A stretch of DNA of 64,000 bases from a virus (lineage: Duplodnaviria; Caudoviricetes), in IMG/VR virus record IMGVR_UViG_3300032321_001270, positions 128,001 to 192,000 of that record; one strand, 5' to 3'. This document shows positions 35,076 to 57,580 of the stretch, piece after piece. Made by a program: the position numbers and the translations under genes. Numbering within the stretch: the stretch's first letter is position 1; each line of letters opens with the position of its first letter. The notes below the pieces were generated by a model. It was not told the origin of the DNA, searched no databases, and worked only from the letters and a program-made list of their open reading frames with translations.

Positions 35076-35378
35076 CTAGAACGTGAGCTGTACAGTTTGC
35101 CCGCCAGCGTTCACATAGACCACGCGAATTTTACTGGCGTCAAGTAACGATTTGAGAAGTGTCTTTTTCTCGGAACTCATTCCGGCAAGGCACGATTTAA
35201 TTTGCGCCATCGCACTTCGTTGCTTTTCTTGTTTTTTACGGGCACATGCGCCACACCCGCCAGCCTCAGTGCGGAACAAATCTTTTTTGTTGAACAGGCA
35301 GGGAATGCTTTGCGCGTATTCCGGGTTGTTCATCATTGAGATAATTGTACTGTCTTCAAGTACTACCATGTCGCGCAT
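35076..35378 (-). CDS. Cys-containing hypothetical protein
   Basis: GGCGACA; GAGG SD. Confidence 0.7.
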   Translation of the reverse strand: MRDMVVLEDSTIISMMNNPEYAQSIPCLFNKKDLFRTEAGGCGACARKKQEKQRSAMAQIKSCLAGMSSEKKTLLKSLLDASKIRVVYVNAGGQTVQLTF

Positions 35379-35916: not shown

Positions 35917-36195
35917 TTATCCTTGTAGAGGCAAGACGCGCGCAGTGATGTTTACAGGCCCCGGGGTTGTCGAACGCACATAGGCCAGCGCCAAACCCTC
36001 GTCGTCTGTGATCCCCGGTTGTGTGATTTGTACGGTGTTGACGTCCGCTATGATTTCAGCCTGTCGCCCTGCTACCGGCCGATCCCAAGGATCTCGTAGT
36101 CTGATTTTGATGACAGCGGCGTGCGTACCGTCGGCCAACACATGCGGTTTTGCGCCGTGCAAAAGTTTTGAACGTTCTGGGCTGACGCAACTCAT
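35917..36195 (-). CDS. Big-1 (invasin-type Ig-like) domain protein
   Basis: ADGTHAAVIKIRLRDPWDRPVAG...TDDEG.A.AYVRSTTPGPVNITARV. Confidence 0.75.
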   Translation of the reverse strand: MSCVSPERSKLLHGAKPHVLADGTHAAVIKIRLRDPWDRPVAGRQAEIIADVNTVQITQPGITDDEGLALAYVRSTTPGPVNITARVLPLQG

Positions 36196-36560
36196 GGAAA
36201 CGTGTGCCTCTGGGGCGCGGAGCCGTCTGGGGGCGAGTAATATATTGTAACGCCAGTCGTTTCAATGTTAGGCGTTTTGGCTACAAATTGAATAAATTGC
36301 CGCATTGTTTCTTGGTCGTTTTCTTTGGCGTGCAGCAGTGCTTCGATAAATGCCGTCATGCACGGAGAAAGAACATTGTTGTCGGCGCGGCATCGGCAAC
36401 CGCGTTCGCTGGCTGATTTGTCGTAGGCGGCGCGACAGGCTTCAAACTGTGGTTGAAGATTTGCTAGTCCGGGAACAGCGTCAAAAAACGGCTGCTGTTG
36501 TGCAAACTGCATAATGTTATCGCGGCTGATTGAAATCATGCGTGTAATACGCTGCGTCAT
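36192..36560 (-). CDS. Cys-containing hypothetical protein
   Basis: RGCRCR; GAGGA SD. Confidence 0.7.
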   Translation of the reverse strand: MTQRITRMISISRDNIMQFAQQQPFFDAVPGLANLQPQFEACRAAYDKSASERGCRCRADNNVLSPCMTAFIEALLHAKENDQETMRQFIQFVAKTPNIETTGVTIYYSPPDGSAPQRHTFP

Positions 36561-36613: not shown

Positions 36614-37516
36614 CTACGCTAACGCCGCCGCTTTTATGGCGGCTCGTAGTGTCGCGTTAGTTTGAATTGCGGCAATAAGCTGCGCGATAGTCAGTTCACC
36701 TTGCGGACCTGTGGGGCCGGTTGGCCCTACGTTGCCGCACGGGCCTGTAGCGCCCGTATGACCGACACCTGACGCGCCTGTTGCGCCGTAGGGTCCGGTA
36801 GGTCCAGCTGGTCCGCGCGGACCTGTGGCGCCACGCGCACCTGTAGATCCTGTATCGCCTTTTGAGCCTCTGGAGCCCGCCGGCCCAGATGGTCCTTGCG
36901 GCCCCTGTCCGCCGACCGAGCCGGCAACGCCTTGCGGCCCCATTAAACCCTGCGGGCCAATTAAACCTTGTAGCCCCTGTGCGCCCTGCAGTCCGCGGTC
37001 TCCTTTCGGGCCGGTGGCTCCGCGCGGCCCTGTGGCCCCTGTAGCCCCGTTAACGCCCGTAATACCTCTGGGCCCTGTCGGGCCAGTCGCGCCTTTTGGG
37101 CCCGTTATACCGTTCGCGCCGGCCTTGCCTTGCGGCCCGGTAGCCCCCGTCGCGCCTTTGACCCCGGTTGCGCCGGTGGCTCCTTTTAAACCTGTTGCGC
37201 CGGTAGCCCCGGCGACACCTGTAGCGCCTGTCGCGCCTACCGGCCCCGTCGCGCCTTTCGCTCCAGTAGCACCTGTTTTTCCTTGTGGACCGCTAACACC
37301 AGTGGCGCCTTTAGGGCCAGTCATGCCTACATTGCCCTGCGCGCCTTGCGGTCCGCGGGCGCCAGCTGGCCCGGCAGGACCTTGCGGGCCGTCATTTCCT
37401 TGTGGGCCTTGTGGGCCAGCTGGACAGACGCCACAGCCGCCGCCGCTGTCGGCCATTGTGATGCCGTCGTACGGCACCATCTCGACTGGCGCGTCGTTAT
37501 TTAATGGGTCGGTCAT
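36614..37516 (-). CDS. collagen-like fibre protein
   Basis: About 80 contiguous Gly-X-Y triplets (GAT/GPT/GPQ). Confidence 0.9.
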
Positions 37517-37522
37517 GGTGGT

Positions 37523-40500
37523 TTAGTTATTTAAAACGGCGCGGACAGCGTTACGCAGGTTCGTGTTTGTATTCAATTGCGCGATAAACTCGTTTAAAAA
37601 CGCGCCCGAGCGGACTAACTCGGCAATATTGATGTTAATGTTTCCGTTAATCGCCGACGTGGTTGCTGTAATTGTGCCGCTACCCACGGCAGATGGTGTA
37701 AATGTAATTGTACCACCGGCGGGTATTACTCCGGTTGCACCTTGCGGACCCGCTGCGCCTGTAGCGCCAACATTGCCACACGGCCCTGTCGCACCTTCTG
37801 GACCCGTCGCTCCGGCGGTACCAGTGGCCCCCTGCGGGCCAGTAACGCCGCGTGGGCCTGCAACACCTGTTGCGCCGGCAACGCCTGTGGCGCCCTGTAA
37901 ACCGCGTTGGCCGGTTGTTCCCGCCGGTCCTTGTGGTCCCGTAGCGCCTTGAATACCTGTTGCGCCGATTTGACCGTTTTGACCGTTTTGACCGCTTGGC
38001 CCAGTTGCTCCGCGCGGGCCAGTAGCACCAGCCACGCCGGTTGAGCCTGTATCGCCCTTTGGGCCGGTGGCGCCGCGCAAACCCTGCGCGCCTGTAACAC
38101 CACGCGGTCCGGTTGGGCCAACCGGGCCTGTAATACCGCGCGGGCCGGTAGCGCCAGCTGCGCCCGTAGCACCAGCAGAACCAGCAGCGCCAGCAGCACC
38201 CGCAGCGCCAGCTGGGCCAGTTACGCCGGTCGCACCACGAGCACCTGATACTCCAGCGGCTCCAGCAGGGCCGACTGGACCAGTTGAGCCTGTATCGCCC
38301 TTGGGGCCCACAGGACCTATTGGGCCGGTTACACCGCGGGGACCGATCGGGCCTGTTACGCCTTTTTCGCCTTTGTCGCCCTTCTGGCCTTTCGCGCCAG
38401 TGGGTCCGGTATTGCCTGTATCGCCTTTGGCGCCGGCGGGACCTTGCGGGCCAGATTGACCGGGATCGCCTGTGCAACCAGTCGGACCCATCTCGCCTTG
38501 AGGCCCGATAATACTTGCACCCGGAAGACCCTGCGGCCCGATGTCGCCGTTCTCGCCTTTCTCGCCTTTCTCGCCTTTCTCGCCTTTCTCGCCTCTGTCG
38601 CCCTGATTGCCTTGCATGCCGCCAAAGCCTGCAGGGCCGCGCGGGCCTGCAGGACCAGCCGGACCTTGTGGCCCGCCGGCGCCGGCGGGACCTTGCGGAC
38701 CCTGTACGCCCGGTTCACCTTTTTCGCCTTGCGGCCCCTGTTGACCGACGCCGTCTTCACCCGGCTCACCCGGTTCTCCTTTGTCTCCCTTGTCGCCCTT
38801 CTCGCATGATCCGCTTCCACCGCCGCCGCTGCCACTGCCGCTGCCACTGCTCGTTGCAGGGCACTCGGTTGTGTTTAAGTCAATGTTGATGGTGAGCTGA
38901 CCTGTTTCCGTATCAACTTCAATGCTGCCGGTTCCGACACCGCTGGGTTTGATATTAACCGTGCCGCCCGAGATACCTGTCGGGATGTATGCATATCCTT
39001 GCACTTCATATTTGCACGTAGTTGTCTCAACGATGTCGACATGTATTTCCGGTGTGCCGCCGCCGTACGGTCGCATCTCCAAACTGGCGCCCGTAAACTC
39101 TGGTACGCACGGTACGGGTACGCCGATAGTTAACTCAATGTCGTACGTACATACGCCCGGCTCGTCACCGCTACTGCCGCCTACCTGTGACGGCGTGACG
39201 TAACCGTAACCATACGGATACTCAGATTCGACAACATCAATGTTGACCTCTATCTGCGGGCACGGTTGCGGCGGGCATTTAGGGATCCAGATGTACGGCG
39301 TTATTTTGAATTCGCATAGATCGAGCTGTTCAACAAGAATCTCTGCGCGCGGTTCTATGCCGCAACCAGTAAGAGCAATTCCCTCGCCGCCTTGAATTTT
39401 CGGGATGCACGGCTTCGGGATGCCGATATAAAACGGTATGACTACGTCGCAGTAGTAACCCTCGTCAAAATTGAATATCGGGGAACTGGCGAACGCATAC
39501 GGATCTGCCTGTGGTGGCAGAACGCGCATATCAACCATCATGGAGACAGTCGTGCACGGCGGCTTTGGAATCTGAATATCGATTTCAAAGTCAATCTCGT
39601 AGCAGCAAACCGGCGGATCATTTGTGCCGCGCTTTTCGTCGTATTCCGGGCATTTTTGAATTTCAAACTTGAACTTAGGTGGCACGTCATAGCCAACCTG
39701 ATGTTCAAGGTTTTTGACGCGTACTGTCGTGCACGGCGGCCGAGGTTGCGGAACGTCAACGTGGATATCAAATAGAAATGTGCATGACCCCGGATCATTA
39801 CACGTAGCCGGGGTTGTAGTTGCAATAAGATTGAAAAAACTCGGCGTATTGTTGAGCCGACCAGCCGGGCCATCTTTGTAATGGCTGTTGACGGTCATGA
39901 ACTTCATCAACGTCGGGCATTTTGGTCGCGGAATCGGAATAACTAGATCTAGGTAGACATTGAAATCGCATGTCTCTGGTTGATCGCAGCCCGAGGCCGG
40001 CGTCACTTCCGTGACAATTTCAAATTTAGACGACCCGCTTACACACGTAGTGCCGGTGTAACCAACTTTCTGGGTAAACGATTTTTTTGTAATTTTTATG
40101 CATGGTGGCGGCGGAATTGGCACCACAATTTCAAGATCGATATCAAAATCACACTGGTCTGGTGTGTTGCAATTACCGGGCGTAATAGTCGAGGTAATTT
40201 CAAACTTGTTCGATTTGCCCTGCACGCATGTCGAGTCAGCGTAACCACTCGTGACCTCAAACGAATTAACGTTGATATTTGGGCACGCTGGTTTTGGAAT
40301 CGGAATTGAAAGCGTCAGATCAAAATCAAATTCGCACTGATCGGGCGTATTGCACCCACCCGGGATTGAGCGCGATGTGATGGTGAAAGATGAGTCACCG
40401 CCCGCGCCGCACGTCGGGTCGTCATAGCCGACCGCAAGCTTGAACGTCGGCGAATTAAGAATTGGGCATGGCGTTCGCGGGATCGGTACAACAATTTCAA

Positions 40501-42064
40501 GATCAACATTAAACTCACACTGTCCCGGGTCGTCGCACGAGCCCGCGGTGTGGCTTGTTGTAATCTCAAATTTTGAACCACCTTGCGCGCACGTTTGATC
40601 GGCGTAACCTGTTGTGATTTTAAATGTTGGCGAATTGATGATTGGGCATGGCGGACGCGGAATTGGAATATTGATCTCTAACTCAACGTCAAATTCGCAC
40701 TGGTCGGGTGTCTTGCAGTCGCCGGGCGTGTGCTTAGGCGTGATAGTGAACTTTGAATCAGGCTGCGTGCAGTTCTGATCGTTGTAGCCGGTTTTTACAG
40801 TCAGTGCAGGTGAGTTGATGATCGGGCATGGCGGCCGTGGAATTGGGATATTGATTTCAAGATTAACGTCAAACTCGCACTGATCCGGCGTGTTGCAGTC
40901 GCCGGCCGTATGTTTTGTTGTGATCGTGAAAATCGAATCTGGCGGCACACAGGTTTGATCGTCAAAGCCGGTGTTCACTACAAACGTTGGCGAGTTGATG
41001 ATCGGGCAGGGCGGTCGCGGAATTGGGATGACGATTTCTAAGTCAAAATTAAATTCGCACTGGTCGGCGTTATTGCAGTCACCGGGTATAACGCGCGTTG
41101 TGATTTCAAACCGGTTCTCGCCCGTGATGCACGACGAGTCGTCATAACCGGAGGTAACTTTTAATACTGGCGGGTTGAGCGTCGGACACGGCGGGCGCGG
41201 TATTGGAATGGCAATCTGCAGGTCAACGTCAAATTCACATCGCGCGGGCGTATTGCAGTCGCCCGGTATTTCGCGGCTGGTGATATTGAAGTAGTTCTGT
41301 TTGCCCAACAAGCAATCGCCGTCCGAGTAACCACTGTCGACGGTAAAGTTTGTCAGGTTAATAAGCGGGCACGGCGGCCGAGGAATTGGCACCGCAATTT
41401 CAAGCTCTATTTCAAACCGGCACTGATCAGCGGTGTCGCAATCGCCGGCCGTGATTACCGGCGTTAACGTGAATTTGTTTTGCGCGTCCGTCATGCACGA
41501 GGAATCGGCATACCCAGAATTGACGGCAAAATTAGTAATGACGATTTGCGGGCACGGCGGTTTCGGCACCGGGATCTTTAGATCCAAATCAATGACAAAT
41601 TCGCAGCTGTCTGGCGTGGTACAATCGCCGGGCGTGATAATTGGTGTGATGCGTATTTCGCTGGTTTGCGTGACGCAATCCTGATAACCGACTTCCAAAC
41701 CAAACTCGCCGGCGGTAAGCGTGCTGCACGGTATGCGCGGAACAGGAATGTTCAGGTCGAGCGTGACTTCGTATTTACACGGATCGATATCTGTTTGTTC
41801 AATCTTGAGCTCGTTTTTAGCGGAGTCGCACGCGCCTGTTCCGCTGGTATCTACAAAGTTGACGCCCAGCGTCGTCACTGCCGAGAAGTCTGGGCAGCGA
41901 ATGCCCACTTCGGTCGGCGGCTCGCGCGGGATGATCGGCGCCTGACAGCCGTAGATCGGCGGCGGCAGCGGCGCAATCTCGCACACCGACGAAATAAAAT
42001 CGAAATCCGCTTTTGGTACGGGTTCGATCGGGCACTGCGAGTCTTTGAAAAGATTTTCAGCCAT
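37523..42064 (-). CDS. large fibre protein: Cys/Pro-rich tandem repeats plus collagen domain
   Basis: About 16 repeats ending in IPxPRPPC-like motifs, a GS linker, then about 120 Gly-X-Y triplets. Confidence 0.9.
38550..38594. repeat. perfect 9-bp tandem repeat (TTCTCGCCT)x5
   Basis: Read directly; encodes GEK collagen triplets. Confidence 0.95.
39060..41900 (-). repeat. ~180-bp coding tandem repeat array (60-aa Cys-rich unit)
   Basis: [30 protein letters not shown] recurs at about 180-nt spacing; units near 40500-41200 are most alike. Confidence 0.9.
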
Positions 42065-42065
42065 G

Positions 42066-42980
42066 TTATGTGCAGTTTACCTGCGCGTTTGGTTTCTTCT
42101 GCACCTTGATTGTTCCGTCGTCAATCAAAATGTTAATTCCAGCGCCGCCAATGATATTGATATTTGTACCGCCAACACCGTTTACTGTCGTGATGAGTTC
42201 GTCACAGGCCGGACCACCGCTAAAAAATTTGCTGTCTGCCGCGAGCGGTTCTGCCGGGTACAGCGGTATTTCGCTTCCGTGCGCACACAATTCTGCGCTC
42301 GTTGACCCGGCTCCAGCGCCTTTAGTCGCGCTGACACTCAACTCATTGGCGCGGTCTGTTTGTGTAATTAAGCAGTTATAACCTTCTTTGAGCCGAATGT
42401 CGCCCTTTATGCAGCGCGCATTTAGGATGATTGGCCGGTTATCGTTCGTGCCGGTGACGCCGCAAGCTGGCACACGAACGCGGTCGTAATTTCCAACACT
42501 GATTGAACGCAAATATGCCTTGTTTAAATTTTGAATAAGCGCCGGTTCAACGCGGTAATCATTGTCGGTAAAAGACCACGTGCCGGATGAAAAAACATCA
42601 CGAAGCGCGCCGAGCGGGCCGGTAGCAATAAACCCAGACCAAATTGGTTCTTCGGCGCATTGTTTGCTGTTAAGCGGCGCGGACTCGGCATACTCGTTTA
42701 ACCACTCGTTAGATTCTTGCTCGCGAAAAAATGACAGTGTGGCACTACTGGCATTTGTTTTAAACACAAACTCAAACACCGGCACCGTATCAACCACAAC
42801 GCTGTTAATTGCCGACAACCAAACGGTGTGCTGCGTCTCGTCAAAATACGCGTCGAGACCCATTACAAAACCGGCGTCAACAATTACGCTCGTTGGCAGC
42901 GGGGGCAATGTGGCTGGTTTGTCGTAAACGAACGGATACGCGCGGTATTCGTTATCGTTGTAAAATCCGGGACGAGGCAT
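42066..42980 (-). CDS. tail fibre/baseplate accessory protein, paralogue family
   Basis: FYNDNEYRAYPF ... GDIRLKEGYN ... ITTVNGVGGTNINI. Confidence 0.75.
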   Translation of the reverse strand: MPRPGFYNDNEYRAYPFVYDKPATLPPLPTSVIVDAGFVMGLDAYFDETQHTVWLSAINSVVVDTVPVFEFVFKTNASSATLSFFREQESNEWLNEYAESAPLNSKQCAEEPIWSGFIATGPLGALRDVFSSGTWSFTDNDYRVEPALIQNLNKAYLRSISVGNYDRVRVPACGVTGTNDNRPIILNARCIKGDIRLKEGYNCLITQTDRANELSVSATKGAGAGSTSAELCAHGSEIPLYPAEPLAADSKFFSGGPACDELITTVNGVGGTNINIIGGAGINILIDDGTIKVQKKPNAQVNCT

Positions 42981-43759
42981 TACACAACGCTCCTACCAAC
43001 GGTATCGACGACAATTGTCTCGCCGTCAACATAAATTCGCAACACGGCGTCGTTGACCAGTTGATTTGTAGCAGTAAACGTAAAACTGCCGTATTCGTCG
43101 GGGCCGCAGCCGTTGATGGTTTTTAAATAAGGTTTGGACGGAAAATTCTCGCCTTGCGGTTCACACAGGAATCTTTTAAATAGCGGGACGCCGATAATGT
43201 CAAATCGAATCACATGCGGGCCGTCTTGGCGCAGCACAACGCCTTGATCGCCAACCAGCCAGATGTCGCCTGTTAAGAACTGCTTTTTTTCTGTTTGGAT
43301 AGCGCGCACACCGGGTTCATTCGCCGGGATCACTACCGTAGATACAAACTCTGTTTCGCCCTGCGTAAACGGATAGGCGCCAATTGCCCACGCAGAAAAA
43401 CGCGCAAGCGCTATTGGAGTTGATAGCAACATTCCGGCCGGGCGACCATAGATATCTGAAAACAACAGTATCCCGTCCGCCGGTGGCGACAGCGGATTGT
43501 AACGCGAAAAAATTCGGCTTGTTAGATCAGAATCGCCAACCGTGATCGTGACTTGTTGCGCCGTTACGTCTATCGACGAGATATACGCGCGAGTACCACC
43601 ACCGATCGCAAAGAATGACGCGTCAATAAAAGTGTCTGGCGCAATTTGAATTGTTTCAGCTGCCGCGCTTTGCAGCGTGGCTGTATCTGCAAACGGGTAA
43701 CGTGACGTCAACTGTTCGTCGCGAAACTCTGGAAATAAAATACGCGCGTCGGTCATCAC
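42980..43759 (-). CDS. tail fibre/baseplate accessory protein, paralogue family
   Basis: SRYPF ... GDIWLVGDQG ... LKTINGCGPDEYGSF. Confidence 0.75.
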   Translation of the reverse strand: MMTDARILFPEFRDEQLTSRYPFADTATLQSAAAETIQIAPDTFIDASFFAIGGGTRAYISSIDVTAQQVTITVGDSDLTSRIFSRYNPLSPPADGILLFSDIYGRPAGMLLSTPIALARFSAWAIGAYPFTQGETEFVSTVVIPANEPGVRAIQTEKKQFLTGDIWLVGDQGVVLRQDGPHVIRFDIIGVPLFKRFLCEPQGENFPSKPYLKTINGCGPDEYGSFTFTATNQLVNDAVLRIYVDGETIVVDTVGRSVV

Positions 43760-45489
43760 TGCACCACAAATTTGTTAAAAAACGTATAAGACTGGTTTGT
43801 AAATAAACCAACAGAACCCGTAACCTCGCCGGGATTGGTGATGCTTGTGAAACCAGTTGCAGCGTGCGTGCCGTCAAGTTCTGATACAGAAAAATTTACA
43901 GTAAGCGCATTACCGTTGAGATTTAAACTTGTATACAGGCGATACCACGTGTTTACTTTTGCGTTGTAGTTTACCGACAGCTCTTCGGTAAATATGTCGT
44001 TGTTGTAACGCAGCACACGGATTTTTGCTCGGGTAGCATCAACAAGTACAACAAGGTACCGGGTAACGACTTGGTTTAATTCAAGTGTCTGCAAATAATT
44101 CAGCACAACGCCGCCGTTACGCGCGATGCCGTTCGTACCGATTTTGAATTCTGTCATGATTGTGCGACTTAGCGCCCAATCTGTTGCGCAGTTTTTCAGT
44201 GCCGCTACGTTCACTCCGCCTATGCCGGCGGAGGCGTATGTGCCGTGATTAGTCAGCGCGCTTCCGATATTTGGATTGAATTCTGCAATCGAGCAGTTTC
44301 CACAAACCGGCGGCGCTTTTGTTTCGGCGGCTGAGAACACCCCTGTTTTTGTTTCAAAGTAAGCGCTTGGCTGGCACGAGCTAAAGTCGGCACACAGCGG
44401 TATTGGAAGACACGCGTAATCGCGGTCTGTCAATGTTTCGTCAACAATAAGATCTATGGCTGTTGTCGGGTCCGGCCAGCAATATTCATCGATAACAATA
44501 TCGGTTTCGTTGTAATTGCTGCCTTCCCAGCGATATACCTTGTTTGTGTCAAACGCCAGATATAATTTATTTAGTTCGCCGGCTGGCGGAAAAGCTGCAA
44601 CATTAGCAAACGTATAAATGTTTTCGCCGGTGAGCGTGCAACACAAATCTTTGAACTCTTGCGGTTTTTTTGGTGTATTGGCAGCGCACACTGACGTCAG
44701 GCCAACATCTGTCACGATGTCGGCGCCACCGCAACCAGCGAAATTGATATTTGTAAAACCATCAAATACGATGTTGATGTTTCCGGCACAATCTGGCGCA
44801 ACACCGTTGATAGTTTCAATTGGTGTTTTTGGGCAGGTACCGCTTTCTGGTCGTTGGCCGCAGGGACCAATAAATGTCTGTAATGGGTTGTATTCGCCCG
44901 TGATTAACGCCGCGTCTAATCGAAATACAACAGCCGGGTAATCGACGCCCTCGTATTGAATAGTTTCGTATTTAGCGGTAACGGGCGAAGATCCTATTAG
45001 ATTGACGACGCCCTGTAGCGCTGTACCAAGATTTATTTTGCCGATAGTAGGGATCGGCAGTGGTCGGTAGGGGCGTGCGTTTCTAGTCTGAATTAGTGTC
45101 TGCGTTGGCCGACTATATCTACCGGCAAACGCTGTATCTACGCCGGGGCCAAAAGCAACCCAGCCAGAAACTCCCGGCACAAGTGGCGTCACACTGTAAT
45201 TAACATAAGGCGAAGCTGGTTGCGGTACAGACACCGCGCAGATTGTTTGCCCCTGCGTGTCAGCCGGTGATTCAACGACACCAAAAACGACTGTAACAAT
45301 TCCAGCAGATACAGTTAAACCCTGCACGTATAAATACTGACCGAGCGGCCGCGGAAACCTAATATGGCAATCAACAAGAATGTCGTCGCGAATAAATGCG
45401 CCGTTGTTGTCGAGACCGCTAGACAGATCGTCAAGCGGGTAGCGCCGCGTTGACTGGAGGTTGTACCAATTCTGGTTGCGTATAGACAT
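43756..45489 (-). CDS. tail fibre protein, paralogue family with C-terminal lectin-like beta-sandwich
   Basis: WYNLQSTRRYPL ... IETINGVAPDCAGNI; fibre module FPPAGELNKLYLAFDTNKVYRWEG; C-terminal GSVGLF..F.KFVV. Confidence 0.75.
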   Translation of the reverse strand: MSIRNQNWYNLQSTRRYPLDDLSSGLDNNGAFIRDDILVDCHIRFPRPLGQYLYVQGLTVSAGIVTVVFGVVESPADTQGQTICAVSVPQPASPYVNYSVTPLVPGVSGWVAFGPGVDTAFAGRYSRPTQTLIQTRNARPYRPLPIPTIGKINLGTALQGVVNLIGSSPVTAKYETIQYEGVDYPAVVFRLDAALITGEYNPLQTFIGPCGQRPESGTCPKTPIETINGVAPDCAGNINIVFDGFTNINFAGCGGADIVTDVGLTSVCAANTPKKPQEFKDLCCTLTGENIYTFANVAAFPPAGELNKLYLAFDTNKVYRWEGSNYNETDIVIDEYCWPDPTTAIDLIVDETLTDRDYACLPIPLCADFSSCQPSAYFETKTGVFSAAETKAPPVCGNCSIAEFNPNIGSALTNHGTYASAGIGGVNVAALKNCATDWALSRTIMTEFKIGTNGIARNGGVVLNYLQTLELNQVVTRYLVVLVDATRAKIRVLRYNNDIFTEELSVNYNAKVNTWYRLYTSLNLNGNALTVNFSVSELDGTHAATGFTSITNPGEVTGSVGLFTNQSYTFFNKFVVQ

Positions 45490-45492
45490 GGC

Positions 45493-47100
45493 TCAGCACG
45501 GCCCCTCGGTTTTACCGTCAGCATTACAGTGTAACGTCTGCACTGTCTCTGATACGGCCGCAGGTGGTGGAAAACCATCAGCGAGATTAACGCCGCAATT
45601 TGTCAGAATAGGCGAGTTATCGCTTAGGAGAGCTCCGGTTAAAACACCGGTAATTACATAAGGACCGCGGGCTCGTGTTTCAACCGACGGCGTTTGCGTG
45701 TCATCTAGTTGAGTAAATTTTACGCGAAATTGTACATAAGCAGACGACCCCGGTTTAAGTTGTGGAAATGCTGCTGTGTAGTTGCGCCCGTCGCTGCTGA
45801 CCGTGATGCCGATTGCGCCGCCGCGGATGCCGGGCGCGTACATAGCCGTGTGACCGCATTCTAATGACGGCGTCACGTGTACCGGTGTTTGTTGCCCCGG
45901 CAGCGCCACTAAATCACCGGATACGTCCAGAGTTACAGTCAGACGAGACGGATTAACACATGTTTCGCAGGGATTGCACAACATCATTACGACGTCCATG
46001 TATGCACAACGCTGCGGAACAAGAAACAGCCGTAGCGGACGTTGCACGCTGCATGCGCGCTGGTCAAGCCACCGCGCTATATTGTTTTCGTGCTCTGTGC
46101 GCACTTTGTCCGCCCGCTGGCCAATAAGCCGGTATCTGTAGCTCGTATCGTTCATGTATTTTGCTGTAGCGGCGTAGTCGTTGCAGCTGCAGCACGGCTC
46201 GCAGTCGGCGCCAATCTGCTGATGTGCTGTAGTAGAAGGATTTACCGCATACGGCGGCGATATCCCGACAGACACGGGGCGGCGGGCCCACAAGCAATCA
46301 GTGCCAGAAATTCGAAAATCGCCGTTGTCGCTGCTGAGTCCGTTAATTTTTGTAAGCGGTACACCTACGTTGCCGCCGCAATTTCCATATCGTCCCAAAC
46401 CGGTACCGGCAACAGCGGTAAAATTTATTTTTGTGTTGTTACGGAAGTTTTTTGTTTCTGCTGTACCGGCCACAATTTCTGTGTTGTACCCATTCACAAA
46501 TTTTATTGATTCGGTATACCGCGGACTGATTGCGTTGCCGTTGCGTACGCGTAGCGTTAACAACCGTTTAGGCATTTTGTAAACAGCGCGTTCATCTAAC
46601 CGCGCGTTCGACGGGGCGAGATATTTATCGTATTGCCGTCGCGTGTCATCATCTATTTGTTGGTTGTCGTCGTTTGGCCACGTGGTATAGGTAACAAGGC
46701 GGCATACAGCGCGCGCAGTCTTCCACTCGTAAATACGGTAATCGGCGCCCCACGCGCTGACGTTAAACAATACGTCCTCGTGATTTGTGTCAAGAATGAC
46801 GCGGTTATGGGAATCCACAACAACGATGTCTGCCGCGTGGACTGAAACCGGAAAACCGGGGGCTGGAGTATTCTCAACACATCCGATGCCGTATAGATAT
46901 TTAATTCGCAGCGGGTGGGTTGCTTTCGGGGCGCCGGAGTCGTATTCGCCAGCGTCGTCATACGACAGATGTAGGTCAGCGACAAGATATTGAATATCTT
47001 CTGACGGCGAGACTAAAGGATAATCTAAGCCGCTTTGCGGTTGCACTACGCCGAGCCCGCTGCGGCCGGATTTTGATGTGGTGTAGTCGGGGCACGTCAT
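45493..47100 (-). CDS. tail fibre/baseplate accessory protein, paralogue family
   Basis: DYPL ... IKFVNGYN ... LTKINGLSSDNGDF ... CEPCCSC. Confidence 0.75.
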   Translation of the reverse strand: MTCPDYTTSKSGRSGLGVVQPQSGLDYPLVSPSEDIQYLVADLHLSYDDAGEYDSGAPKATHPLRIKYLYGIGCVENTPAPGFPVSVHAADIVVVDSHNRVILDTNHEDVLFNVSAWGADYRIYEWKTARAVCRLVTYTTWPNDDNQQIDDDTRRQYDKYLAPSNARLDERAVYKMPKRLLTLRVRNGNAISPRYTESIKFVNGYNTEIVAGTAETKNFRNNTKINFTAVAGTGLGRYGNCGGNVGVPLTKINGLSSDNGDFRISGTDCLWARRPVSVGISPPYAVNPSTTAHQQIGADCEPCCSCNDYAATAKYMNDTSYRYRLIGQRADKVRTEHENNIARWLDQRACSVQRPLRLFLVPQRCAYMDVVMMLCNPCETCVNPSRLTVTLDVSGDLVALPGQQTPVHVTPSLECGHTAMYAPGIRGGAIGITVSSDGRNYTAAFPQLKPGSSAYVQFRVKFTQLDDTQTPSVETRARGPYVITGVLTGALLSDNSPILTNCGVNLADGFPPPAAVSETVQTLHCNADGKTEGPC

Positions 47101-47103
47101 ATG

Positions 47104-48045
47104 TCACCCCGTTGAACAACCAGAGTCGCCGAGCTGGCTACCGAGCACGACGAGGCTCATTTGCGTTACTTCAGATCCAAGTCGCGTGATAAAGTTCTGT
47201 AGCGTAGTGACGCCGTCGCCAAAGCGATTAATCTGGTCGACGATTGCGTCCAGCTCTGTGCAGCCACAACAAGGTTGCGCACACGTATCTGCAAATTTTA
47301 ATCCGTTACTCATCGGCGTAATCTGAATACAGTCGTCGGGCGCGATAATAAAATTGCCGTCTGAACTGCATACACCGTTGATACACCGAATACACTCGCC
47401 GGTTGTTGGTGTATCGCAGTAACACTCTTCATTCAGATTTGTGTTCGCAATAGCGTCAAAAACAATTTCTGTTTCAGCGCCAAAATTAGCGGCCGTAATC
47501 CGAATGTTGTTTCCGGCGACAAGCGTGACATCGCCGTAAATGGGAGCACTAAGTTCGCTGTTGTTTGAGACGCGCAGTCGGGTTACGGCCCGCAACATTG
47601 GCCGAATAGCGTCTGTCTCTAGCTCGCCGTCTGCGGGTTCAAACTCGTACAACCCCGGCGGAAGTAAATCAACCTCGTCTAGTACGCCGAGCACGACGCG
47701 GCCCACGCAGTCGTCGAAGTCGCCTAGACCGCCGAGCGCGTAAGACCGGTTTGGTTGATAGTTGCTGCGAATAATATTGGCAGCGGCGACGTCTACGGTT
47801 TGACCGCCAGCGGCATAGCCAACTGTGATATTAAAACCGGTTGGCGCAATCAGTATGCTTTTGATGTAAAAGTTATTTGGCGCAAACGACAGGCCAGAGT
47901 GGATAGGCAGGTACAAGCCAACAATAAAGCTGTCTGGCAGCCTAATCGTTTTGCTGACGTCTGTTTTTGTGGCGCGCTCTGTCAGCGGGTATGACCGCTG
48001 CGAGTTGTGATTGAGCCACTGTAGATTCCAGTTTCCAATTGGCAT
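47104..48045 (-). CDS. tail fibre/baseplate accessory protein, paralogue family
   Basis: WLNHNSQRSYPL ... GDVTLVAGNN ... IRCINGVCSSDGNF ... CAQPCCGC. Confidence 0.75.
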   Translation of the reverse strand: MPIGNWNLQWLNHNSQRSYPLTERATKTDVSKTIRLPDSFIVGLYLPIHSGLSFAPNNFYIKSILIAPTGFNITVGYAAGGQTVDVAAANIIRSNYQPNRSYALGGLGDFDDCVGRVVLGVLDEVDLLPPGLYEFEPADGELETDAIRPMLRAVTRLRVSNNSELSAPIYGDVTLVAGNNIRITAANFGAETEIVFDAIANTNLNEECYCDTPTTGECIRCINGVCSSDGNFIIAPDDCIQITPMSNGLKFADTCAQPCCGCTELDAIVDQINRFGDGVTTLQNFITRLGSEVTQMSLVVLGSQLGDSGCSTG

Positions 48046-52383: not shown

Positions 52384-54099
52384 TTAGCTCGCCCAACCGC
52401 CTGATACAACGGAAATAGAGATATCTTCCGGTCGTGTTAAAAACGCGGTTGTGCGCCCGGTGACTAAACGCGCAACATCGTCCGGTATTTGCAGAATTGT
52501 ATTGTCTCGAATACGGGCGGTAGTGCCGTCAGGCCGCCGAATCCGACCGAACATGTCAACGCTACCGACGGCTTGACGCCCGCTCAAATACCTATGCACT
52601 ACGTTTGTGATAACAGACGCGTGCAACTGGCCAGAGAACCCAATCGCCCCAATGGCTGTGCTGATGCTTTTTTTGATAGCCTCAAGATTTGGCGCGGCTT
52701 CGGCAGCTGGCTTGCGGATTTCAAACGAAATCTTTGTAAAACACGGCACCGGCGCTTTAACCAGTATGTCAGTCGCACGCGGTCTCGTTTCTCGACCCGT
52801 CAAGTAGTCCTGCAGTTCGGCGATTAGCGGCATACCTACAGTTGTTACACCGTACAGCTTTTTTGTCTGGCCGGCGACGAGTGTCGGATTCGGCTGTATA
52901 TCGGTATTCACAAAACGAATAACCGCAGTTTGGTATCGCGTGTATGCACTTTCGGGTATGTACATGATGTCAGGCACAAAATCTAACTCTGAAAAATCGA
53001 CGTGGCGCGTGTCGAGCAGCACAGAGTAATTCACGGGTTGCGCCACAGTCGGATCGACGACACTGACAACTTCATAAAAACCCGGCGCGGCTTCGCGGTT
53101 GATCGACACCTGCCACACAGTGCCGGTCGTCGTTCCGCCCACCAGCGCGCGTTCAGCGCAGTCGCCCGAAGAGTTTGTTGGCGGCAAATATGGTTCGACG
53201 TACGTGGCCGTCAACATGTGTTCTTTTTCTTGCGCATACATATTGGTCTGCGCGTAAATATCTATTTTGCCGCCGCCTGATACAGGAAACAGCGTGTGTT
53301 GGTCGCGCTGCTGCTCAGCATCACCGCAGCCTAGAATCGATAGGTTTTTGATATTAGAAAATGCTGACTGCGTAGTCAGCGCGGCTTCGTAGCTTTGCCG
53401 GCTGCCAATTGTTTTGGCCGCCAGCCCGCTCGCCAACCGTTGTAGGTATTGAGAGTTTGTGGCCGCATCAGAACCTTCGATGAAGTCAGTGGCGGCGTAC
53501 GCGGCGGCGACATTATTGATCACGCTATTTGGCGTTAGGTTTACGCCGCGCTTAATGTTCCCAGCTGAGCCAACTGACAGCGCGATCACTGTGATTGTTG
53601 CGGCGAACGTTCCGTCGCCGACTGGAATCATTTTTCTTTGGTTTGTTTCTGTAGCCTTGTCTGCTGAAGCTGCAGAAAAAACAACAAACGAGTTTGTCGG
53701 CACAAAAACGACGCCGGCGTCTTCGGCAGCAAACCGTACGGCGCTGGAAATCTCTGTTCGTGTGTCGGAGTTGAAAATGATTGTTAGCGCGCCTGTTGCT
53801 GGCGTACCGTTGTCGCGCGTCAGGTTGAAATTGGACAGAACCTGATCAACCAAGTCGGCGTCAGCGAGTTCCGGGTTTTCGGTTATTTTGAGCAGGCTTT
53901 TGCTCTGCTGCACGCGGTCGATATTTTCTTGAATGGCGGCATTCAACAAGCCGTCAAAATAAAGCACTAGATCGTGAAATACGCCGCGCGTTAATTCCAC
54001 TTCTGGGTGACGTTCCGCCATAAGCTGCGACAACGTCGCAACCATTGCTTGCACCTTTTCTGGGTTTAACTGCGTCAGGCTTGAAATTTCAATTGGCAT
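52384..54099 (-). CDS. baseplate J-like protein
   Basis: DLV...N..LTRDNG.PATG.L.I, GSAGNI, G.DA.T...Y..RL, GGGKIDIY: baseplate J pattern. Confidence 0.85.
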   Translation of the reverse strand: MPIEISSLTQLNPEKVQAMVATLSQLMAERHPEVELTRGVFHDLVLYFDGLLNAAIQENIDRVQQSKSLLKITENPELADADLVDQVLSNFNLTRDNGTPATGALTIIFNSDTRTEISSAVRFAAEDAGVVFVPTNSFVVFSAASADKATETNQRKMIPVGDGTFAATITVIALSVGSAGNIKRGVNLTPNSVINNVAAAYAATDFIEGSDAATNSQYLQRLASGLAAKTIGSRQSYEAALTTQSAFSNIKNLSILGCGDAEQQRDQHTLFPVSGGGKIDIYAQTNMYAQEKEHMLTATYVEPYLPPTNSSGDCAERALVGGTTTGTVWQVSINREAAPGFYEVVSVVDPTVAQPVNYSVLLDTRHVDFSELDFVPDIMYIPESAYTRYQTAVIRFVNTDIQPNPTLVAGQTKKLYGVTTVGMPLIAELQDYLTGRETRPRATDILVKAPVPCFTKISFEIRKPAAEAAPNLEAIKKSISTAIGAIGFSGQLHASVITNVVHRYLSGRQAVGSVDMFGRIRRPDGTTARIRDNTILQIPDDVARLVTGRTTAFLTRPEDISISVVSGGWAS

Positions 54100-55118: not shown

Positions 55119-55940
55119 TTAAAATCCACCTTGGGTGTACTGTTTATCGAGCAGGGACTGAATCTTGGCGGCACGTTGGCTGACGGCACCCGGCGTGATA
55201 TTTAATCGGCGCGCAATGTCTTGCGTGCTGGCTTTACGCCGGCCATTACGTCCTAACGTCATATCGGCAATCAACTTGTCGACCGGCCCAAGATCGTCAT
55301 AGACAAAGTTGAACCATGCATCCGCAGAGCGTGTGCTGTTTGGAATGTTACTAGCTACATCGCCGCCGTACGCTTCATCGTCGCCAACTTCGCGCGTCGT
55401 CATGCCCTCGGATACCGGCTGGTTGAATGCGCGAATTTTTTGTATCCGTTTTTTTGACAACCCGGTTTGGTCCGCGAGTTCGTCGTCTGTCGGGTCGCGC
55501 CCAAGTTGATCGCGCAGTTCGCCTTCACTTTCGTTGAGTCGCGAATAATCCAAACCGACTTGCTCTGGGATAGTTATGATATTTTGTGCCTGCGCTGACA
55601 GTCGCCGTAAGCTCTGCAGTTGAGACAGAAGATGCGTGCGCACATTCCCGCGCTTGGGGTCGTACGTGTCGAGCGCTTTTAAGGCCATCATTTTCGCGCG
55701 AGACCGAATGGTTGGGCTCGCGTTCTGTCCGGCATAGCTCATGACGGCTGTGTCTATAACGGGCTGCAGCGTCCCCAACAACGCCGTATTCGTTTCGGGC
55801 GTTTTGGTCGTCTGCCACGTTTGGTACGCCGTATCAAAAGCTGAGCTGACACCTGTCGGTTTTTTGTCAGAAAAAGGGGCAGGAATATCGCCCAAAATGG
55901 ACGGCATGCCAGTAGGTTTTTTTACAGTATCGTTTTGCAT
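55119..55940 (-). CDS. sigma-70 family RNA polymerase sigma factor
   Basis: Region 2 KALDTYDPKRG, region 3 LGRDPTDDELADQTGLSKKRI, region 4 HTH STQDIARRLNITPGAVSQR. Confidence 0.85.
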   Translation of the reverse strand: MQNDTVKKPTGMPSILGDIPAPFSDKKPTGVSSAFDTAYQTWQTTKTPETNTALLGTLQPVIDTAVMSYAGQNASPTIRSRAKMMALKALDTYDPKRGNVRTHLLSQLQSLRRLSAQAQNIITIPEQVGLDYSRLNESEGELRDQLGRDPTDDELADQTGLSKKRIQKIRAFNQPVSEGMTTREVGDDEAYGGDVASNIPNSTRSADAWFNFVYDDLGPVDKLIADMTLGRNGRRKASTQDIARRLNITPGAVSQRAAKIQSLLDKQYTQGGF

Positions 55941-57580
55941 TATTCTGGTTTCCGTAATGGACCACCCGGCCATTTCGTGCCCTCTACGTACAGCGGCGCG
56001 TACTCTTTCGACACAAGCGTCGTGTCTTTGTCTTCTTCCTCAGTGCGCAGATACGACAGCGCAAACGACGTGCCGGCAAGCGCACGTTCAGCGTTAATTG
56101 CATACGACACTTGCGTTACTGCGCCAATCATCGACCCGTCTGACTGAATTTCTGACGTCGGCATTTCAATTTTAACAATACTGCCCGGTGCGATGTCGAA
56201 ACGTAATTTGCCGGATAGTTCGCCGTACCGCTGGCTTAAAAACTCGGTCTTGTAGAAATGTTCAGCAAAACGCGAGCACACCTTGTCCGACATGGCGTCT
56301 GCGATATCTGGAGCAGGTAACCAGTCAGGTGGTGGATTTTCTTCGCCTGTTTGCGGCGCTAAACAGCAGCCGCCGCGTTTGCCGTTCACGCTGGTTGTGG
56401 CCGCACTAAAAATAGGCCACGGCGACATGTTTGTCAGCCATGTCGGTAAATCTTTAAACAGCTTCAACCCGTCACGCTCTGTGTCGCCTTTTGGCGGATA
56501 CTGGCCGGCTGGCTGCGTGTAGCTATCGGTAGTTCGAACTTGCCCGCCAACTTCAAGCATTGGGTCGAGTTGGCTTGGCCAGAACACTACAACACTGTCA
56601 ATAAGCTGACTTAGCGACGCGTTAAAATTTGCGTAACTGTATTCGTCGCCTTTGATCACGTACTTTTGATTTCCGTCGTGTTGAAGCCCGCCAAAAAACG
56701 GAATCACACACGCATGTTCAATACTTGGGGATACCGCAAAGAAAAATTGTGGTGCATACTCCCCAACAAGTTTTCCCCAAAACGATGTGTAAGCAAACGA
56801 CTCCAGCGCGTCTTTTGTTAGCGCTGTACGCACCGATTGCTCAATGTTGTGCCCGGGTAAATCGGTCACGTCAATGGCTAGTGGTGTTGTTTGTACGGAA
56901 GCTGCTTGCGCGCCCATGGGGTCGCCTTTGGGCATTCTTTCAAGCGCTTTTAACGCAGCATTATTTGGTTTTGCTTGCGGTAGATCCCACTCAGCGATCT
57001 TTTTAAAGATAGGTTTGATGACCTTGGCCCACAGGTCGCTGCCGATGTTTGCTTTGGTAACAAGTTCTTCGTCAGAGTCGATCACTGGCACACTAGAGTG
57101 CGTAGTGCCCTCTGTCGTCTGCAGCGCCACGAAAGCCGCGTTGGTCGCCATCAGGAACGGCGCGTTTTGAAACCACTTGCCGTTGAGCGCCGACGAGTTA
57201 TTTAAGTTGTCGAGCCAGTGAATCAGCTGCACGACGTAGTTTGCGCTGTTGTGCGACCGTTGATATCCGACACCAGCCACCATACCTTCAAATATCAAAA
57301 ACCGGCCCGACTCCATTTTTGATGTTTTACCGGCTTCCGGTGTAATTGTGAGCCAGACTTTGGCTTCGTCGCGCGGCTTGATCTGTTTTCGCAGCGTATG
57401 AATCGTCGCTTCTTTTTGACGTCCTGTGCGCGCGTCGTGACCTACCGCCATAGTGAGTGACGCGGTCGGAATACTATTCAAACCGAAAGTAGCTGAAATC
57501 GCCACGATATCGTCGAACTTACGTCCGGCAATTTCGGCGTCTATTTTGAACTTTGAGTATACGTACGGAATTTCAGCCAT
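55940..57580 (-). CDS. baseplate hub protein (gp27/GpD-like)
   Basis: LNSIPTASL N-terminus, IFEG.V.G, RFDIAPGS.VKI C-terminus; position. Confidence 0.65.
   Translation of the reverse strand: MAEIPYVYSKFKIDAEIAGRKFDDIVAISATFGLNSIPTASLTMAVGHDARTGRQKEATIHTLRKQIKPRDEAKVWLTITPEAGKTSKMESGRFLIFEGMVAGVGYQRSHNSANYVVQLIHWLDNLNNSSALNGKWFQNAPFLMATNAAFVALQTTEGTTHSSVPVIDSDEELVTKANIGSDLWAKVIKPIFKKIAEWDLPQAKPNNAALKALERMPKGDPMGAQAASVQTTPLAIDVTDLPGHNIEQSVRTALTKDALESFAYTSFWGKLVGEYAPQFFFAVSPSIEHACVIPFFGGLQHDGNQKYVIKGDEYSYANFNASLSQLIDSVVVFWPSQLDPMLEVGGQVRTTDSYTQPAGQYPPKGDTERDGLKLFKDLPTWLTNMSPWPIFSAATTSVNGKRGGCCLAPQTGEENPPPDWLPAPDIADAMSDKVCSRFAEHFYKTEFLSQRYGELSGKLRFDIAPGSIVKIEMPTSEIQSDGSMIGAVTQVSYAINAERALAGTSFALSYLRTEEEDKDTTLVSKEYAPLYVEGTKWPGGPLRKPE

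Follow-up and report, generated by a model that had tools for sequence, protein, structure and literature searches.

The locus described here raises the question of what a long, cysteine-rich repeat array is doing in a collagen-bearing phage fiber, and which of its cysteines belong together. The window analyzed is a stretch of 64,000 nucleotides, bases 128001-192000 of a 205,188-bp IMG/VR virus record (IMGVR_UViG_3300032321_001270) that is rated complete by CheckV, and coordinates refer to this window. The gene in question occupies 37523-42064 on the minus strand; its reading frame is open and specifies a product of 1513 amino acids followed by a stop codon. For phage engineering, tail fibers, which set the host range, are a prime target; few shaft architectures are known. 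We find that the loss of Cys20 from one repeat is coupled to the loss of Cys38 from the repeat that follows it, a coupling that allows the cysteine partners to be predicted from sequence.

Architecture of the Repeat Array

Seventeen repeat units of about 60 residues were found, with their first cysteines at residues 57, 113, 171, 232, 293, 353, 413, 473, 533, 594, 655, 716, 778, 837, 886, 935, and 986. They comprise one first unit with three cysteines, ten canonical units, two units at the end of the array, and four degenerate units. An earlier first-pass annotation of the window had estimated about 16 four-Cys repeats, close to this count, in which the ten canonical units have all four cysteines. 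Over its N-terminal 1045 residues the protein contains 12.6% proline and 6.0% cysteine.

A hidden Markov model built from nine copies recovered 14 units in this protein and between 3 and 26 in each of 71 homologues, and the repeat therefore lies far beyond chance. Numbering from the first cysteine of the unit, the conservation over 684 full repeats from these homologues was determined to be 98% for Cys1, 81% for Cys20, 90% for Cys38, 100% for Cys44, and 100% for Pro57, which bears out the consensus proposed earlier. Tandem Repeats Finder returned a period of 180 nucleotides at 40629-41085 (2.5 copies, 76% matches, and a score of 493), matching the period of about 180 nucleotides first noted. 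The most similar copies do lie in the middle of the array, as had also been observed: the units that begin at residues 353 and 413 are 77% alike in amino acid sequence and 76% in nucleotide sequence. The other core copies are 50-60% alike and the end copies 15-35%. Because the remaining core copies are only this similar, the array is old and held by selection, and not freshly amplified.

Pairing of Cysteines across Repeat Junctions

The presence of cysteine was scored in four regions of 1041 full repeats from 128 proteins of the family, which provide 827 junctions between adjacent repeats. The loss of Cys20 from repeat i was found to coincide with the loss of Cys38 from repeat i+1 (2 × 2 table [[54,14],[15,744]]; odds ratio of 191; p = 2e-57). 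In the reverse direction, Cys38 of repeat i with Cys20 of repeat i+1, the odds ratio was 0.99. Pairing of Cys20 with Cys38 inside a single repeat was considered and rejected, with an odds ratio of only 6.8 that dropped to 1.0 at the level of sequence clusters.

The co-loss does not descend from one inherited event, since the junctions that have lost both cysteines fall into 22 sequence clusters at 50% identity and the association survives the removal of related sequences. With the tested columns masked and the junctions collapsed to 147 clusters, the table was [[20,4],[2,121]] (odds ratio of 302; p = 1e-18); at 40 clusters the odds ratio was 135 (p = 8e-7). The internal junctions alone gave [[13,1],[7,600]] (p = 4e-21). 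Across subsets, the odds ratio for Cys20(i)-Cys38(i+1) ranged from 191 to 1100.

The Cys20(i)-Cys38(i+1) rule is also obeyed at the ends of the arrays. In 72 of 94 arrays, Cys38 is missing from the first unit, before which there is no other repeat, and an array typically ends with a unit without Cys20 followed by a unit without Cys38. In one relative there are 20 consecutive units in which Cys1 and Cys44 are the only cysteines. Several exceptions to the rule carry a new cysteine at column 53, beside the loop that holds Cys20, and this residue looks like a rewired partner.

The same pair was obtained by direct-coupling analysis of 826 two-repeat windows, in which Cys20-Cys38′ (the prime denotes the second repeat) ranks first of all column pairs. 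The next couplings across the junction, R58-D42′, Y15-P41′, and R58-G36′, fall in the same interface. The two-repeat analysis is stable, since the couplings internal to a repeat recur independently in both halves of the window. Couplings between identical columns of adjacent repeats (I52-I52′ and C44-C44′) were disregarded, since they probably reflect the duplication of repeats and not contacts.

From this covariation, we conclude that Cys20 of unit i is paired with Cys38 of unit i+1. The first-pass annotation had proposed a stapled β-repeat. That the cysteines are paired is supported here, but the variable pair is not closed within a repeat; it joins each unit to the one that follows. Applied to this protein, the rule predicts 11 links across junctions, with donor residues from Cys79 through Cys674, together with a pair of the Cys1-Cys44 type in each of the 17 units. 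The cross-junction pairs probably make the stalk a single cross-linked rod that precedes the collagen. The stalk had been envisaged as extensible; the cross-junction pair and the conserved interface between repeats argue instead for a rigid, non-extensible rod.

Fold of the Repeat Unit

The arrangement of strands within the unit was derived from a mean-field direct-coupling analysis of 1036 distinct repeats. The couplings 24-53, 25-52, 26-51, and 32-45 (i + j = 77) describe an antiparallel hairpin of strands 2 and 3, which places Cys38 at the hairpin tip. The couplings 2-46, 4-48, 5-47, 7-49, and 10-51 (j - i = 42-44) describe a parallel pairing of strands 1 and 3, and thus Cys1 lies next to Cys44. 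The loop at 14-25 couples to the end of strand 3 (D17-R58, Y15-R58, G14-V53, and E24-V53). These strand and loop couplings put strand 3 at the center of the sheet, with the Cys20 loop capping the end at which strand 3 exits.

The hydrophobic columns 4, 6, 9, 11, 15, 27, 29, 46, 48, 50, 52, 54, and 56 all lie on one face of this sheet. Acidic residues occupy the opposite face (columns 45, 47, 49, and 51), which is coupled to basic residues at columns 26 and 32. Since one face is fully hydrophobic, the sheet has to be buried, and with three chains forced together by the collagen the most straightforward arrangement, which we infer, is a trimeric prism of repeats.

Residues 353-532 were modeled with AlphaFold 2 (AF2) using a 77-row alignment of three-repeat segments. 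The monomer model, with a predicted local distance difference test (pLDDT) of 78 and a predicted template modeling score (pTM) of 0.39, contains three long strands per unit, at about positions 3-15, 26-34, and 43-56, and no helix. The three modeled repeats are thus all-β, in agreement with the β-repeat that had been anticipated.

No match of weight came from searches with Foldseek of the PDB, BFVD, and AFDB clusters or from those with VIA-align wide and the ESM Atlas. The top values were a Z score of 3.3 and a template modeling (TM) score of 0.47, and the matches were other tandem β-arrays (cadherins, SasG G5-E, and SprB-type). Bacterial Ig-like domains (Big_1 and similar) were considered and rejected: there was no Pfam match, and the unit has three strands in 60 residues and not a seven-strand sandwich of about 90 residues. 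Ig-type rows in the fold searches had TM scores of 0.2 or less.

The G5-E rods of SasG and Aap, in which tandem three-stranded sheets are joined by Pro-rich segments, suggest a different arrangement. Each chain could form its own thin, single-layer β-rod of this kind, so that three arms would extend from the collagen and the cysteine links would all be intrachain. The units appear as separate three-stranded sheets in the AF2 model, and weak G5-type structure matches were obtained within the noise range of the tool: SasG (5dbl) with a Z score of 3.1 over 109 residues and a root-mean-square deviation of 5.2, Aap (8deo) with a Z score of 2.3, and RpfB (3eo5) with a Z score of 2.2. However, these Z scores are far below the level that the tool typically reaches by chance (7-8), and the G5 profile (PF07501) gave no Pfam match to the repeat pieces at E values up to 10. 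The G5-E rods are monomeric, free of cysteine, and without a hydrophobic face, and a uniformly hydrophobic face would not persist on a single sheet exposed to solvent. The adjoining collagen, moreover, forces the three chains side by side. We regard separate single-chain rods as unlikely and favor the trimeric prism.

In T4 gp12, gp34, and gp37 and in the triple β-spiral of adenovirus, short β-repeats of about 15-40 residues bury alternating hydrophobic residues between three chains, and the shafts are thin and rigid, with a length that scales with the number of repeats. The repeat described here differs in its length of 60 residues, its four-Cys pattern, and its Pro-rich connector, and no match to the T4 gp12, gp34, or gp37 entries or to the adenovirus shaft entries was obtained in searches of the PDB. 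Thrombospondin type 1 and EGF-like repeats, about 40-60 residues long with long thin strands and conserved cysteine pairs, also occur in tandem in extracellular rods. Their disulfides are all closed within one repeat, and they fold in an oxidizing compartment, whereas here one pair crosses repeats, synthesis takes place in the bacterial cytoplasm, and there is no Pfam match.

Chemistry of the Cysteine Pairs

Cysteines in the family are lost strictly in twos, and Cys1 and Cys44 are kept at 98-100%, even where they are the sole remaining cysteines. The first-pass annotation had proposed disulfides or metal as the staple; the loss of cysteines two at a time, while Cys1 and Cys44 are always retained, favors disulfides over a four-Cys metal site. 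In the metal-bound alternative, Cys20 of unit i together with Cys1, Cys38, and Cys44 of unit i+1 would hold Zn or Fe and so aid folding in the reducing cytoplasm. The geometry of the couplings does put all four cysteines near the junction, the fiber is synthesized in the cytoplasm from a genome with no sulfhydryl oxidase, and axial metal ions are known in trimeric fibers, as exemplified by the His-bound iron in T4 gp37. However, the loss of cysteines in pairs and the retention of Cys1 and Cys44 through 20 consecutive two-Cys units would leave two ligands, which are insufficient for a tetrahedral site and yet are conserved. A Cys4 site of the zinc-ribbon or rubredoxin type was rejected, as the cysteines are spaced at 1, 20, 38, and 44 and the consensus has no CxxC or CPxC knuckle; Pfam scans gave no zinc-ribbon or rubredoxin family match to the repeat. 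We consider metal binding at the junctions to be quite unlikely.

Disulfides have been described in the tails of two phages. In the virion of Agrobacterium phage Milano, the short fiber gp31 has three intra-fiber disulfides and is linked to wedge proteins through a bond of its N-terminal Cys38, and contraction requires reduction (PMC10811340). The fibers of cyanophage Pam3 are tethered by disulfides through Cys28 and are freed by dithiothreitol (PMC9942802). The premise of the first-pass annotation that phage fibers are usually poor in cysteine is therefore dated, since cryoelectron microscopy of Pam3 and Milano shows disulfides in tail fibers and also ones that join the N-termini of fibers to the wedges of the baseplate (PMC9942802, PMC10811340). 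As in those two phages, whose tails are assembled in the cytoplasm and contain many structural disulfides, the fiber described here has cysteines at its N-terminus (three) and Cys-rich adaptors nearby. It differs in that there is no sequence similarity, and in that a repeated cysteine pair, presumably bonded, spans the junctions here, compared with a few isolated disulfides in Milano and Pam3.

The cysteines might also be transient, acting as an auto-chaperone and being reduced in the mature fiber. The Cys annulus of the P22 tailspike (PMC3357383) serves as a precedent for cysteines that aid folding, and assembly in a reducing environment would suit such a role. However, about 60 cysteines per chain in strict register, with directional coupling across 128 proteins, are more than a folding aid needs, and the tail disulfides are retained in the solved virions of Milano and Pam3. 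A purely transient role is, in our judgment, very unlikely, and disulfides in the mature fiber are preferred.

Novelty and Distribution of the Family

In a Pfam scan of the whole fiber, Collagen was the sole match and nothing was found on the repeat part; the matches to PHROGs all fall inside the collagen region and likewise leave the repeats unmatched. Separate repeat pieces searched against Pfam (E values up to 10), PHROGs, and NCBIfam returned noise alone, which in Pfam consisted of CLIP (E value of 0.036) and Antifungal_prot. The repeat profile gave only ephrin-B2, at an E value of 0.07, when compared with all PDB sequences, and no cultured phage among 50,697 records was matched by tblastn. 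A feature search of the ESM Atlas yielded no usable match, and a full-text search of the literature found no description of this repeat. The repeat had not been recognized in the first-pass annotation, and it has no match in Pfam, PHROGs, NCBIfam, the PDB sequences, or five structure libraries. The four-Cys, 60-residue repeat is thus an undescribed and well-delimited family within a known kind of protein, the collagen-bearing phage fiber. The collagen-like phage tail fibers (PF01391; PHROGs 6320, 5073, and 819) are matched by the C-terminal third of this protein with E values of 1e-47 to 1e-73; as with those fibers, the gene is part of a tail module, and its collagen implies a trimeric product. 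They differ in that their families cover only residues from about 1090 to 1470, and the N-terminal 1068 residues are unmatched.

The 71 homologues, obtained by a word-indexed search, are all metagenomic. Contigs of about 200 kb carry many of them. Most of the homologues have collagen, and some lack it entirely. A single-repeat profile matched only 89 clusters at E < 1e-3 in a search of 1.84 billion representative proteins, and a scan of 185,579 species genomes gave one match, to a 3.9-kb fragment of a metagenome-assembled genome (MAG). The homologues vary in the number of repeats (3-26), the cysteine pattern, inserted domains, and C-terminal modules, and variation of this sort is the usual behavior of a host-interaction gene. 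Since relatives share the gene order and a Baseplate_J gene lies 10 kb upstream, the family looks like one orthologous fiber locus in one clade of large phages.

Inserts of 30-300 residues were observed within a repeat of some relatives (P0017, P0065-P0069, P0074, P0079, and P0080), between the first strand and the last hairpin, and since these inserts sit inside repeats, the rod acts as a scaffold for extra domains as well. The insert of P0074 gave no match in a Pfam scan. In homologue P0002, whose repeats are 88% identical, a pectate-lyase-like β-helix domain (PF12708; E value of 1e-17) is embedded in the collagen, which suggests a glycan-degrading variant of the fiber.

Gene Layout and Genomic Neighborhood

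All of the features in this section that lie in the window are on the minus strand. The fiber gene (37523-42064; 1513 residues) is separated by a gap of 1 nucleotide from the upstream gene and by 6 nucleotides from the downstream gene. Residues 1-56 (41897-42064) form an N-terminal module with conserved Cys11, Cys28, and Cys40, which would be the attachment end. By sequence the N-terminus has no signal-peptide-like character. The module is 51-80% identical to those of syntenic relatives and is kept in 98 members of the family, in all of which the first repeat begins between residues 50 and 65; it has no match in Pfam or PHROGs. The first repeat unit, residues 57-112 (41729-41896), has three cysteines and lacks Cys38. 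The ten canonical four-Cys repeats, each of 58-61 residues, span residues 113-715 (39920-41728) and are followed by the two array-end units, residues 716-836 (39557-39919), in both of which the cysteine of the Cys20 loop is absent. The four degenerate units cover residues 837-1068 (38861-39556). Three of them have only the Cys1/Cys44-type pair, the unit at residues 886-934 has four cysteines, and the region closes with a conserved L-N-T-T-E-C-P module, in which Cys1068 lies. This pre-collagen module is present in 42 of 42 collagen-bearing homologues.

A Gly/Ser-rich linker, residues 1069-1089 (38798-38860), places Cys1087 immediately before the collagen region, residues 1090-1447 (37724-38797). 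The latter consists of three runs of Gly-X-Y triplets (6, 25, and 87; 118 in all) separated by two short breaks, and scores 160 bits against Pfam Collagen (PF01391; cutoff of 27.2; E value of 1e-47). A linker followed by about 120 triplets had been described in the first-pass annotation, as had a fiber fused to collagen, and both descriptions hold. The fiber gene moreover adjoins baseplate genes, as indicated by Baseplate_J and synteny. The long open reading frames in other frames at 36825-38889, on both strands, are Pro/Ala/Arg-rich read-throughs of Gly-X-Y and are apparently composition artifacts, not genes. The C-terminal tail of 66 residues, 1448-1513 (37526-37723), gave no family match in piece scans of Pfam, PHROGs, and NCBIfam. 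Its amphipathic end segment may nucleate the trimer. Homologues have several types of post-collagen tail, 27-79 residues long, with a similar amphipathic ending in all. The adhesin role proposed earlier is not supported, as only these 66 residues follow the collagen.

A Baseplate J-like wedge protein (PF04865; E value of 2.2e-11) is encoded at 52384-54099, 10 kb upstream on the same strand, and its presence marks this operon as the one for the baseplate. Six viral contigs and one MAG fragment preserve the gene order, with identities of 47-90%; it runs as follows: a 642-residue gene, five tandem genes, the fiber, a 300-residue collagen protein, a 122-residue protein, Big_1, a 175-residue protein, and a 100-residue protein. 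The fiber slot is identical in two distant members (L011 and L012), for a total of nine related contigs; one of these distant members has only two cysteines per repeat, and the other is 3281 residues long. Two genes past the fiber of the collagen-free, two-Cys relative there is a Glyco_transf_9 (heptosyltransferase-type) gene (L011:14076-15965).

The five tandem genes directly upstream of the fiber (42066-48045) encode proteins of 304, 259, 577, 535, and 313 residues, which are candidate adaptors at the periphery of the baseplate. Four of the five are rich in cysteine (2.3-3.8%), and two are paralogous by tblastn cross-matches; none has a family match of weight in Pfam or PHROGs. An R-x-Y-P-(F/L) motif opens three of the five, and the C-terminal end of the 577-residue protein resembles a lectin-type sandwich by eye. 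The fiber itself has 4.4% cysteine, and most core baseplate genes are below 1%, a distribution that fits a cysteine strategy limited to the exposed periphery of the tail. By analogy with Pam3 and Milano, the three conserved cysteines at the N-terminus of the fiber may bond to the Cys-rich adaptors.

Downstream of the fiber, the stand-alone collagen protein of 300 residues (36614-37516; PF01391; E value of 5e-37) is syntenic in relatives and has a C-terminal ending like that of the fiber tails. The 122-residue protein (36192-36560) has four cysteines and no family match, and is syntenic in L003-L008; its slot in the distant loci L011 and L012 is taken, by position only, by genes of 115 and 122 residues. 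The 100-residue protein (35076-35378), also with four cysteines and syntenic in L003-L008, has 93 homologue clusters, across which the length is nearly fixed and Cys27, Cys42, Cys45, and Cys63, with one CxxC, are invariant. Its gene fills the same slot in both distant loci, one of which is without collagen. The AF2 model of this protein (pLDDT of 84) matched no thioredoxin-like, Erv-like, or other known fold, which leaves a role as a dedicated thiol oxidoreductase conceivable but unsupported. A homologue, P0170, occurs on a 202,923-bp contig labeled Sphingorhabdus sp. by NCBI, which is either a hint of the host or a binning artifact. The open reading frame of 92 residues at 35917-36195 encodes only a Big_1 Ig-like domain (PF02369; E value of 2e-10), and most relatives, one of the distant ones among them, have retained it. 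A sigma-factor-like gene of 284 residues (55119-55973; PHROG 351; E value of 3e-9) lies within the block of baseplate genes.

A head, neck, or whisker fiber, or a non-virion secreted or surface protein that merely sits beside baseplate genes, would be compatible with neighbors that lack a recognizable family apart from one Baseplate_J match and with a tail too short for the usual receptor-binding tip, but such an identity is very unlikely given a fixed, translationally packed slot after the wedge and adaptor genes in nine of the nine related contigs read, an N-terminus unlike a signal peptide, and a collagen half whose family matches are all phage tail-fiber PHROGs.

Proposed Structure of the Fiber

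The explanation that we judge probable, if narrowly so, is that this protein is a trimeric tail fiber with a rod stapled across its junctions, most likely by disulfides formed after lysis. The long tail fiber of this uncultured 205-kb phage would be built in the cytoplasm as a homotrimer. Its conserved 56-residue N-terminus, with three cysteines, would dock on the Cys-rich adaptors at the rim of the baseplate. The 17 units of about 60 residues would form the rod, each unit being a three-stranded sheet with strand 3 in the center, strand 1 parallel on one side, and strand 2 antiparallel on the other. The hydrophobic face of each sheet would be hidden from solvent, in the simplest case by packing on its counterparts in the other two chains; the opposite face is acidic and salt-bridged. 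The chain would advance by one strand length per unit. The Cys20 loop would cover the top of unit i, and the Cys38 hairpin tip of unit i+1 would pack onto this loop. A Cys20-Cys38′ staple would thus be found at each junction (11 in this protein), and Cys1-Cys44 would provide a second pair at the base of the unit.

Both pairs are proposed to be disulfides that close when the virion meets oxygenated water. The product of this oxidation would be a covalently linked, rigid, and protease-resistant shaft whose length is set by the number of repeats (3-26 in relatives). Beyond it, a Gly/Ser hinge would lead to a flexible collagen triple helix nucleated by the short C-terminal segment. With one strand length per unit, the rod would be roughly 70 nm long, and the collagen roughly 100 nm (354 residues × 0.29 nm).

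Several observations weigh against this explanation. The fiber is made in the reducing cytoplasm, and no match to Erv1/ALR (PF04777) or DsbA (PF01323) was found in the 205-kb record at E values up to 0.1. Given that environment and the lack of an oxidase homologue, any disulfides must form after release or spontaneously. The rule is broken at 29 of the 827 junctions. The near-invariance of Cys1 and Cys44 leaves no covariation signal for their pairing, and covariation cannot tell a disulfide from a shared pair of metal ligands, or an intrachain from an interchain contact. The pTM of the AF2 monomer is low (0.39), and a fixed packing between repeats is not evident from the model alone. No neighbor besides Baseplate_J has a recognizable family, so that "tail fiber" is a call from gene position, and the 66 residues behind the collagen are too few to make up a typical receptor-binding domain. 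Across the genome, a single thioredoxin-fold gene was found (G000:C1:52407-52652, plus strand; PF00085; E value of 2e-10), and it lies outside the window.

A more specific form of the disulfide proposal is an interlocked covalent ladder of about 28 bonds per chain, each spanning about 78 residues and overlapping the next, that comes into being only after exit from the cell. We consider this ladder plausible but somewhat less than probable. Its bonds may run between the chains of the trimer, and its oxidation would be a built-in maturation step that hardens the fiber and perhaps also its link to the Cys-rich adaptors of the baseplate.

The repeat adds to phage biology a domain family that had not been described and that appears confined to one clade of environmental phages of about 200 kb, and its exact cysteine partners could be predicted from sequence alone. 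If the prediction is correct, the cross-junction ladder would add to the recent evidence from cryoelectron microscopy that disulfide networks harden the tails of environmental phages, and the fiber would provide a modular rod with a length that is tunable by the number of repeats. It would also raise the question of by what means about 60 cysteines per chain are kept reduced and correctly matched until release. A disulfide ladder that closes after release would then be a new design principle for phage fibers.

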